Shown piece after piece: positions 2,124 through 7,651 of a DNA stretch of 26,179 nt. The notes beneath the pieces are model-generated. The model did no database searches. It was not told the DNA's origin and was given only the letters and a program-made list of their open reading frames with translations. The translations under genes were made by a program, and so were the position numbers. This DNA comes from Thermoproteaceae archaeon. Its GTDB lineage: Archaea > Thermoproteota > Thermoprotei > Thermoproteales > Thermoproteaceae. Numbering within the stretch: position 1 is the stretch's first letter; each line of letters opens with the position of its first letter. The DNA lies in contig JAJHRB010000016.1 in the NCBI GenBank assembly GCA_020833025.1, forward strand, positions 1-26,179, written 5' to 3'.

Positions 2124-2188
2124 CTCGCGCGCTCTAAGCAGGGGCGCACGTCAAGCGCGGCAGAGTAATGCGGCATCTCACATGCCTA

Positions 2189-2223
2189 GAAAGCCTTGCC
2201 CTTTAGGGCGGGGAGGCAGTTCA
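2189..2223 (+). mobile_element. Orphan IS200/IS605-type right-end hairpin
   Basis: GAAAG-CCTTGCCC-TTTA-GGGCGGGG-AGGCAGT-TCA: same hairpin as both ends of the decayed tnpB element at 22901-22920 and 23576-23596, ending in TCA; no transposase or tnpB nearby. Confidence 0.55.
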
Positions 2224-2336
2224 GAGCCCAGTACAGCGGGGAGCGTCCTACTGGGCATCGGTTTTCTCTACTCCCTTGAGGAGGTGCGGGGTTCCCGGAA
2301 TCCACCAAGTGCCTCTTCCGGCGGCTTGGAGCTCCC

Positions 2337-2409
2337 GCGCGAGGGAAGGTTAAAAGGGGAACGATAGAGGAAAGCTGTAATGGTGAGAGAGAGCCCCTCT
2401 GAGGCCAGA
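2337..2409 (+). repeat. Dispersed repeat copy 1 (promoter + C-box/guide/D'-box half), overlapping the spt5 start
   Basis: 2337-2359 is identical (23/23) to 7380-7402; 2375-2409 matches 7420-7454 at 32/35 positions. Confidence 0.9.
2350..2355 (+). promoter_or_regulatory. BRE/TATA element for spt5
   Basis: GAAGG-TTAAAA, 24 nt before the ATG at 2380. Confidence 0.65.
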
Positions 2410-6266: not shown

Positions 6267-6556
6267 TGGCGGGGCGGGAGGTCAGGGGGCTTCTCGTGAT
6301 GGTGCGAGACTTAGTAATACTGTCACTTGAAATAGAGCCGTGCGGGCGCGCGTTCACATTCCAAGTGACCGGGAGGGAGCTGCGCCTTTGCGGCAAGACC
6401 CTCGTGCTGAGCGAGAGCGTCGGCGAGTTCGCGCGCGGGCTGCTCGTGCTCGGCGGCACTCCATTTCACGCAGAATGCGCGTCGGGAAATTGCGTTGCTG
6501 TCAGAGCAGCTCCCCACCCTGCGAGAACATTGCATCAAGCTCCTCGAGATCCTTGA
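6266..6556 (+). CDS. Hypothetical protein (96 aa)
   Basis: Start overlaps the mvk stop (TAATG); beta-rich with several Cys; 3' end overlaps the convergent nucleotidyltransferase gene. Confidence 0.55.
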   Translation: MAGREVRGLLVMVRDLVILSLEIEPCGRAFTFQVTGRELRLCGKTLVLSESVGEFARGLLVLGGTPFHAECASGNCVAVRAAPHPARTLHQAPRDP

Positions 6557-7193
6557 GGTTATCAACTGAGCGCCAGAATACGTCCTTGAACAGGGCTGCC
6601 TTGAGTCGCCGCTGGCGCGCCAGTAGCGGGAACAGCGTCTCCTCCACGTTCCCGCGGTCCGGCAGCTCGCCGAGCAGCTTTTTCCTGAGGGCGTAGACGC
6701 CGGCATTGATGTAAAATCCCTCCAGCACGGGCTTCTCGACAAATCTCGTGATGAGGCCGTTCGCGTCAAACTCAACAATGCCGTAGGGGCTCTTCAGAGG
6801 CACCAGCGCAATCGCGCCGTCGGCGTTACCAAGCTCCTCGAGCAGCTTGCTGACTGGCAGGTTCGTTATGATGTCCCCGTTGACGACGATGAATACGTCA
6901 TCTGTAATGAAGGGGGCGGCATTCTTTATCGCGCCGCCTGTGCCCAGCGGCTCCTCCTCGACGCTGTAGAGGATCCTAACGCCGTACTTCCTCCCGTCGC
7001 CAATAGTCTCAAATATCTTATGCCGTAAGTATCCCACTGCTAGTATTACATCCGTCACGCCGTGATGCCTGAGCCACTCTATCTGCCTCGCCAGTATTGG
7101 CTTGCCGCCGACCGGCAGTAGAGGCTTGGGCACATCGCTCGTGAGCGGCGCCAGTCTCTTGCCAAAGCCGCCGGCTAGAATGACGGCTTGCAC
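6501..7193 (-). CDS. Sugar-phosphate nucleotidyltransferase (NTP_transferase family)
   Basis: AVILAGGFGKRLAPLT-x-x-x-PKPLL, EEEPLGTGGAI, VVNGDI, INAGVY. Start set at GTG 7193, with TTAAAA-like promoter ~20 nt upstream, rather than the ORF-track start at 7490. Confidence 0.9.
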   Translation of the reverse strand: MQAVILAGGFGKRLAPLTSDVPKPLLPVGGKPILARQIEWLRHHGVTDVILAVGYLRHKIFETIGDGRKYGVRILYSVEEEPLGTGGAIKNAAPFITDDVFIVVNGDIITNLPVSKLLEELGNADGAIALVPLKSPYGIVEFDANGLITRFVEKPVLEGFYINAGVYALRKKLLGELPDRGNVEETLFPLLARQRRLKAALFKDVFWRSVDNLKDLEELDAMFSQGGELL

Positions 7194-7379
7194 GCGCGCA
7201 GTGGGGCGCGCGCTTTTAAGCAGTGCGCGCAGCCCCGAATCCCTGCCCTCGCGACGGGACTGCCGGCAGCCCGCCCCCAGTCTCAGCCGCCCCAGAGCCC
7301 TAGAGCCGGCCTCTGGGGTCGGTCGCGGGATGGCTTGGCTGTCGGCGGGACGGCTGCAGTAGGGCCGCCTCTGCCCCAA

Positions 7380-7454
7380 GCGCGAGGGAAGGTTAAAAGG
7401 GGGAGGGGACAGGAGGGGGCTGTAGTGGTGAGATAGAACCCCTCTGAGGCCAGA
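7380..7454 (+). repeat. Dispersed repeat copy 2 (promoter + 5' half of C/D sRNA)
   Basis: See copy 1: 23-bp identity plus a 32/35 block. Confidence 0.9.
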
Positions 7455-7476
7455 TGACGAGGTCGTTGCTCGCTGA
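7425..7476 (+). ncRNA. Probable box C/D methylation-guide sRNA
   Basis: C-like GTGGTGA (7425-31), 12-nt guide GATAGAACCCCT, D' CTGA (7444-47), C' ATGACGA (7454-60), 12-nt guide GGTCGTTGCTCG, D CTGA (7473-76); TTAAAA promoter at 7393-98. The C box is a variant (G at position 4). Confidence 0.65.
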
Positions 7477-7651
7477 CTGGGGCGTGCCAATGTCTGCGCT
7501 TACACTGTGCCAGCATATTGCGTATTGCACTGCCAGTGCGAGCCGCGCGCACCTGGACCGGCCGAGGCCGCGGTTAGCGATATTACTGCCGCTCAGAAGA
7601 ATAAGCGGCGCCGGGGCGCTAGCAGCGAAAACCTTTTATAGATAGCTCTAC

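Follow-up and report, generated by a model that had tools for sequence, protein, structure and literature searches.

A truncated copy of a box C/D sRNA gene as the probable source of the promoter and first ten codons of spt5 in a Thermoproteaceae archaeon

In a 26,179-nt stretch of DNA from a Thermoproteaceae archaeon (contig JAJHRB010000016.1, positions 1 to 26,179; the whole stretch is referred to as the window), the sequence just upstream of spt5 and the first codons of the gene resemble the promoter and the 5′ half of a box C/D sRNA gene that lies about 5 kb downstream. This raises the questions of which copy is the older one and whether the copy at spt5 now serves as a promoter, as coding sequence or still as an RNA element. 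In the reading that we favor, with a probability of about 85%, the start of spt5 is an exapted, truncated copy of the sRNA gene that extends from the promoter to codon 10, and the copy is a pseudogene and not a working guide.

The two copies and the complete sRNA

The repeat pair occupies positions 2337-2409 and 7380-7454 of the window. The features of the two copies and of the complete sRNA are as follows, all on the + strand.

2337-2359, +, promoter block, copy A: BRE/TATA, with TTAAAA at 2350-2355 and 30 nt from its first T to the ATG
2360-2373, +, spacer, copy A: purine-rich and fast-evolving, between the TATA box and the predicted transcription start
2374-2409, +, sRNA-derived block: C-like box, former D′ guide, D′-like box and the spacer GGCCAGA
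2380-2386, +, C-like box of the spt5 copy: ATGGTGA
2387-2398, +, former D′ guide in the spt5 copy: GAGAGAGCCCCT, two substitutions compared to GATAGAACCCCT
2399-2402, +, D′-like box of the spt5 copy: CTGA
7380-7402, +, promoter block, copy B: predicted to drive the sRNA, with TTAAAA at 7393-7398 and 32 nt to the C box
7425-7476, +, box C/D sRNA: C box, D′ guide, D′ box, 6-nt spacer, C′ box, D guide, D box
7425-7431, +, sRNA C box: GTGGTGA
7432-7443, +, sRNA D′ guide: GATAGAACCCCT, 12 nt
7444-7447, +, sRNA D′ box: CTGA
7454-7460, +, sRNA C′ box: ATGACGA
7461-7472, +, sRNA D guide: GGTCGTTGCTCG, 12 nt
7473-7476, +, sRNA D box: CTGA

The initial annotation had described an identical 23-bp BRE/TATA block, and a comparison of 2337-2359 with 7380-7402 (GCGCGAGGGAAGGTTAAAAGGGG) showed that all 23 positions are indeed the same. 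It had also reported a second shared block with 32 of 35 positions identical; the block is there, with a corrected count of 33/36 (2374-2409 against 7419-7454). Between the two blocks, the 14-nt spacer at 2360-2373 differs from the 16-nt spacer at 7403-7418 by 8 substitutions and a 2-nt indel, which corresponds to a divergence of about 50%. The start ATGGTGA as a C-like box, the 12-nt guide with two substitutions and the following CTGA are present as had been described. The homology stops at 2409 and 7454, the latter being the first base of the sRNA C′ box ATGACGA (7454-7460), as had also been claimed.

The genome to which the window belongs was searched as a 1.56-Mb assembly of 126 contigs. 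When the sRNA locus was used as the BLAST query, the spt5 copy (E = 1.8e-16) was the only match apart from short chance ones. A 21-mer core of the promoter, searched with up to three mismatches allowed, was found at these two sites only, and the reversed control gave zero hits. The block is thus limited to two copies in this genome, and we rejected the possibility, raised by the initial annotation, that it is a generic high-copy repeat. The promoter block resembles AAGCTTAAAAGG, which is located upstream of a tRNA gene.

The full-length copy at 7425-7476 has internal D′ and C′ boxes and two 12-nt guides. Its C box, GTGGTGA, has a G and not an A at position 4 when compared to RUGAUGA, and its D box is CTGA; the C box of the homologues is GTGAGGA, GTGACGA or ATGACGA. 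The C′ box, the D guide and the D box were identical or near-identical in three other genomes. A sequence model built from four sRNA copies (R1) gave exactly one match in each of the 17 other genomes of the genus (Pyrobaculum) that were searched, with E-values from 1e-9 to 2e-20. Nine genomes of the neighbouring genus had no match, two genomes of a third genus had weak ones, and in the genome of the window the model recognized only the full sRNA copy. The family consensus reads GTGA(C/G)GA, GGATGAACCCCA, C(T/C)GA, CTAG, TGA(A/C)GA, GGTCGTTGCTCG, C(C/T)GA. Within it, the D′ guide core GAACCCC is conserved across the sRNA copies of the genus, and the D guide core GTCGTTGCTCG is invariant in 18/18 copies (our loci L118-L135 and the window), with variation at the first guide base. 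Both the guides and the boxes of 7425-7476 are thus conserved in related genomes. A search of the whole window against Rfam gave nothing at the gathering thresholds; permissive settings gave a full-length match to snoPyro_CD at 14 bits (threshold 45) and a match to sR17 at 11.7 bits (threshold 36), two models that represent other genera, Rfam having no model for this Pyrobaculum family. Shorter queries were less informative: counts for the D′ guide core as a short pattern in the relatives were no better than the reversed control, and the few candidates from a looser pattern with boxes all lay outside the genus. Judged from sequence and its conservation, 7425-7476 is a real and ancient box C/D sRNA.

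Possible targets of the guides were searched in the rRNA of relatives; the assembly itself contains half a 16S and no 23S gene. The D′ guide could form nine contiguous Watson-Crick pairs with AGGGGUUCU at about position 862 of the congener 23S rRNA, which was equalled by 5/400 shuffles. For the D′ guide of the family consensus, 8+2 pairs were found with AGGGGUUCA at about position 698 of 23S rRNA (30/400 shuffles). The D guide gave nothing convincing in the 16S and 23S rRNA of four relatives, in aragorn tRNA calls or in five genomes (226/400 shuffles), and GGTCGTTGCTCG is a conserved orphan guide.

In the other Pyrobaculum genomes, the sRNA is located between a gene pair encoding Sir2 and a membrane protein on one side and a 131-aa ORF on the other. 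Two relatives have the 115-aa and 254-aa ORFs of the window downstream of their sRNA, so that in the window the right flank is old and the left flank rearranged. Homologues of Sir2 and of the 197-aa membrane protein were not found in the 94%-complete assembly. In the window (6501-7651, compared with L118-L135), a nucleotidyltransferase gene at 6501-7193 on the minus strand replaces the Sir2/membrane pair, which places a rearrangement breakpoint just upstream of the sRNA promoter.

The derived start of spt5

The genes and remnants around the spt5 copy are the following.

1809-2123, +, secE-like gene: 104 aa, two-TM, with the C-terminus ...LAKLR before the stop as in relatives
2127-2237, +, HgcC-like element: stand-alone and degenerate, beginning 4 nt after the secE stop
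2380-2886, +, spt5: 168 aa, with the Pfam domain Spt5-NGN (PF03439, E = 1.4e-15) at residues 17-95
2410-2427, +, probable old 5′ end of spt5, diverged: six codons, PRSSSP, aligned with (S/A)QERCP of the relatives with weak similarity

The product of spt5 was assigned to Spt5/NusG by its NGN domain and by the synteny with the genes for L11, L1 and L10, and it is 66-73% identical to the Spt5 of Pyrobaculum. The gene upstream was identified by tblastn with the upstream gene of the relatives, to which it shows 41-56% identity within the genus and 35-38% to the neighbouring genus. The gene order prefoldin-ftsY-secE-spt5-L11-L1-L10-mvk is kept in four relatives and in the window. In 17/17 relatives in the genus, and also in the neighbouring genus, the stop of the 100-aa secE-like gene overlaps or abuts the start of spt5 (...AAGCTGAGGTGATG...). 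Their Spt5 is 151-154 aa long, begins with M(S/A)QERCP-(V/I)Y and has no sRNA-like sequence. The 168-aa form is limited to the species cluster of the window, where it occurs in three variants. Here an extra stretch of about 286 nt (2124-2409) separates secE from the old start of spt5, and the N-terminus reads MVRESPSEAR-PRSSSP-LY. The entire extension, nine added residues and a new Met, is accounted for by the ten copied codons, and the PRSSSP codons that follow are probably what is left of the ancestral 5′ end. Upstream of the NGN domain, the only in-frame starts are the ATG at 2380 and the GTG at 2383, both within the copied C box; upstream, the frame is closed by a stop at 2365-2367, and after 2383 no further start codon occurs until 2512 (residue 45).

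Since the sRNA is present in 17/17 other genomes of the genus and the spt5 genes of these genomes lack the copy, the copy at spt5 is the derived one. The comparison of spt5 upstream regions and N-termini among relatives, which the initial annotation had proposed as a way to polarize the event, thus resolved the direction. It had offered two scenarios, and the one in which the promoter and a half-guide of an sRNA were captured as the N-terminus of an essential gene is supported by a genus-wide sRNA and by relatives whose spt5 has no such sequence.

In the reading frame of spt5, the sRNA would be GTG GTG AGA TAG AAC CCC TCT GAG GCC AGA, and the spt5 copy is ATG GTG AGA GAG AGC CCC TCT GAG GCC AGA. 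All three substitutions change the codon and none is synonymous. GTG to ATG gives a better start codon, TAG to GAG removes an in-frame stop and AAC to AGC replaces Asn with Ser; the first two are those that were needed for an open frame. At two of the substituted sites (box position 1, G to A, and guide position 7, A to G), the sRNAs of other species have the older state and the spt5 copy has the new base.

The arrangement was also found in other assemblies. A protein index contained three Spt5 variants that were at least 98% identical and all 168 aa long, while a metagenome scan with Spt5 gave no close relative. The spt5 copy was present on 9/9 contigs encoding these variants, which came from JGI, ENA and Logan assemblies of different samples, and five of the nine contigs also spanned the sRNA copy about 5 kb downstream. 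An assembly artefact, the other concern raised by the initial annotation, was therefore rejected, as nine independent assemblies show the same arrangement. Within the population, the former guide occurs with AGC or with TGC. The promoter block was invariant across all population variants and the adjacent spacer varied, even among strains that are 97-99% identical.

The spacer is significantly more diverged between the two copies than the transcribed block (Fisher p = 6e-4). We considered an RNA-level constraint on the copied block as the cause and dropped this explanation, because the spacer also varies between near-identical strains, so that recency accounts for the low divergence of the copied block; the duplication may have happened fairly recently. 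An invariant BRE/TATA block beside a variable spacer points instead to selection on the promoter, as would be expected if it works.

Other roles and origins for the copied 5′ end

The copied 5′ end could still function at the RNA level, either by binding L7Ae or a C/D RNP that regulates the translation of spt5 or by acting on 23S rRNA as a half-guide. In favor of this, the C-like box and the CTGA are kept with 12 nt between them, there are zero synonymous changes in the ten copied codons, and the former guide could pair with the candidate 23S site AGGGGUUCU through eight Watson-Crick pairs and one G-U pair. In natural sRNAs, however, the C box pairs with D and not with D′, and codons 11-30 of spt5 contain neither a UGAUGA-like box nor a CUGA, so the full set of C/D boxes is missing. 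R1 gave no second match in the genome, and the fold was no more stable than that of shuffled sequences (z = -0.28). The pairing of the former guide to rRNA was no better than chance, and the AGC to TGC variant lies inside the guide and breaks it. That the block has diverged so little is accounted for by its recency. A leaderless mRNA would leave no 5′ flank for the canonical stem, and the G at position 4 of the C-like box removes one of the two G·A pairs. The A at this position forms a sheared G·A pair, and losing a G·A pair abolishes the binding of L7Ae (PMC5539422). L7Ae does regulate mRNAs via K-turns in Sulfolobus (PMC5539422), so the background on L7Ae that the initial annotation had cited is correct for that organism, but no such l7ae leader is present in Thermoproteales (PMC5539422). 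Taken as a whole, a retained role of the spt5 copy in L7Ae binding or as a guide appears unlikely. It would also be a long shot that the copied 5′ end makes a leaderless spt5 mRNA, and perhaps also L11-L1-L10, depend for translation on the pool of free sRNP proteins. If sRNPs did recognize the 5′ end of spt5, a single partial duplication would have created a new link between rRNA modification, the supply of ribosomal proteins and transcription elongation.

Another explanation is that the copied promoter is inert: transcripts that run on from secE would cover spt5, and the copy would matter only for its start codon and N-terminal codons. secE and spt5 are encoded on the same strand, 256 nt apart, which would allow this. 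However, the 23-nt block is perfectly kept between the copies and among the variants beside a spacer that has diverged by about 50%, and both the structured remnant of a transposon end and a TTTTCT run are located in the region between secE and spt5. Read-through past a promoter copy that does nothing is conceivable, but it agrees poorly with a BRE/TATA block that has stayed perfectly conserved, and we hold it to be improbable.

The reverse direction, in which the promoter and 5′ half of the sRNA were copied from the 5′ end of the spt5 mRNA, was the second scenario of the initial annotation. A two-copy repeat is symmetric and in itself allows it, but the comparison with relatives refutes the birth of a guide RNA in this way. 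The sRNA has conserved guides in 17/17 other genomes of the genus, all with the corresponding 5′ half (GTGAGGA/GTGACGA, GGATGAACCCCA and CTGA), the spt5 genes of the same 17 genomes have no such sequence, and the sRNA copy has a TAG in the spt5 frame. An integrated element with duplicated attachment sites, or a chimera from assembly or binning, is likewise refuted: direct repeats made of the 5′ part of an RNA gene do flank a 5-kb segment, but this segment is spt5-L11-L1-L10-mvk in the ancestral order after secE, and thus not an inserted element, and the spt5 copy is present in nine independent assemblies.

Proposed history and relation to known sRNA genes

The preferred reading, capture of a truncated sRNA gene copy by spt5, includes the separation of secE and spt5. 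The sequence at 2127-2237 has a weak full-length match to HgcC in Rfam (RF00062; 15.5 bits, E = 0.29, threshold 50). Its hairpin, CCCTTTAGGGCGGGGAG, occurs 13 times in the genome. Seven copies of this hairpin family match HgcC over its full length at 23-39 bits, under the threshold of 50, and two overlap the 3′ ends of TnpB genes that encode Cas12f1-like_TNB and OrfB_IS605 domains; the copy at 2127-2237 has no adjacent tnpB. The RNAs of the HgcC-like family look like TnpB right-end (omega/reRNA-type) scaffolds, and we read 2127-2237 as the remnant of a right-end RNA scaffold of the TnpB (IS200/IS605) type. Such a remnant in the gap makes it plausible that the insertion of a mobile element separated secE from spt5. 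A literature search on HgcC and on the guide strings found nothing relevant.

The hairpin of the 13-copy family has the form CCCGCCC(TTTA/CTCA)GGGCGGGGAGGAGGTCAG. In addition to window 2127-2237, copies are located at C11:1907, C19:3933 and 39231, C28:34278, C33:1726, C39:10843, C47:8908, C60:1828, C65:102, C89:29732 and 35598 and C114:2561 of the assembly, and the majority are stand-alone and MITE-like.

We propose the following history. In the ancestor, spt5 would have been translationally coupled to secE and without a promoter of its own. In this lineage, the junction between the two genes was opened by about 286 nt, including the TnpB-type transposon-end remnant. A partial duplication at the DNA level copied the promoter, C box, D′ guide, D′ box and inter-box spacer of the sRNA gene and placed them in frame directly before spt5, with the parent gene remaining 5 kb downstream. 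The duplication could have been a direct 73-bp copy or a 5-kb tandem duplication followed by loss of the first copy. spt5 is most likely transcribed from the copied promoter into an mRNA that is leaderless or close to it: its predicted start is about 26-29 nt downstream of the TATA box, which leaves at most a few leader bases. The distance of 30 nt from the TATA box to the ATG fits leaderless mRNAs in Pyrobaculum, because the TATA box of P. aerophilum l7ae is at -25 from the start codon (PMC5539422). The start codon comes from the copied C box (GTG to ATG), and the copied guide became coding once the in-frame TAG had changed to GAG, giving Spt5 an RNA-derived N-terminal extension of 10 residues, MVRESPSEAR.

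Lui et al. (2018) described sRNA genes that overlap the 5′ ends of ORFs in the sense direction and share their promoter, with the ORF start codons located in the C′ box or the D guide (PMC6009581). The guides involved mostly have no rRNA or tRNA target, and coding constraints win (PMC6009581). At spt5, sRNA sequence likewise shares the promoter of a gene and overlaps its start. In contrast to the overlaps in that study, in which the sRNA is complete, the copy is cut before the C′ box and the start codon is the C box. The intact parent is found 5 kb away, and the gene is the universal spt5, for which the other members of the genus have no separate promoter. Lineage-specific sRNA duplicates (Pae sR113a/b), a Pae sR62 pseudogene 2.5 kb away and composite or transposed sRNAs are known in Pyrobaculum (PMC6009581). 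As in these cases, the duplication was local and lineage-specific with one copy decaying, but here the decayed copy serves as a promoter, a start codon and ten codons, and two of its three substitutions opened the frame. The presence of C- and D-like boxes at the start of an mRNA is reminiscent of the L7Ae K-turns in mRNA 5′ regions (Daume et al. 2017, PMC5539422). Those K-turns, however, have both strands, intact G·A pairs, a canonical stem and demonstrated binding, whereas no partner strand or stem is evident in the spt5 copy, for which the comparison is one of sequence.

There is also a likeness to promoter capture from mobile elements, where a gene separated from the promoter of its operon acquires another from duplicated or mobile DNA; here, too, a transposon-end remnant is located in the spacer. 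The difference is that the donor was the promoter of a stable-RNA gene, not the element itself, and that a part of the RNA gene now encodes protein. Known examples of such capture are the outward-facing promoters of insertion sequences and, in bacteria, promoter capture that follows duplication. The spt5 case fits the known plasticity of sRNA genes in Pyrobaculum and is not a new class of system. An essential and universal gene appears to have been rewired by losing its operon context and taking a stable-RNA promoter, with part of a guide RNA turned into a start codon and protein. Two enabling point changes sufficed, and the direction and the intermediate steps can be read from the sequence. 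Archaeal C/D box sRNA genes are known to be mobile and plastic, and the locus is a concrete example of one being reused in a new role. It is also a small natural example of coding sequence that came from a non-coding RNA gene.

Further rearrangements were seen at the edges of the promoter block, at the spt5 copy in L079/L080 and at the sRNA in L081/L082. In the sister lineage L079/L080 (Spt5 98% identical), the sequence upstream of the block differs, and homology to the window begins exactly at 2337 (L079:1-383 and L080:1-60, compared with window 2124-2336). Both contigs are short and show no secE. In place of the window sequence they carry a repeat of about 170 nt from the hairpin family, with copies at C39:10835-11006 and C60:1820-1932 of the assembly. 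The block edge at 2337 is also the site of a break in this sister lineage, a hint of a discrete mobile or recombinogenic unit, which our best explanation does not cover.

In L081 (13043-13265), a GC-rich insertion of 221 nt is located between the sRNA promoter and the sRNA body, corresponding to window 7422/7423, and its start is also present in L082 (10192-10218). The insertion had no copy in the genome of the window, no Rfam family and no unusual fold. GGCTGT is found on both sides of it in L081, and an AAATAAA box at its 3′ end lies about 25 nt upstream of the sRNA, so the insertion may bring a replacement promoter for the sRNA. The genome of the window has a G+C content of 62.6% and a size of about 1.56 Mb at 94% completeness, and the host is a divergent, high-GC and apparently reduced lineage.
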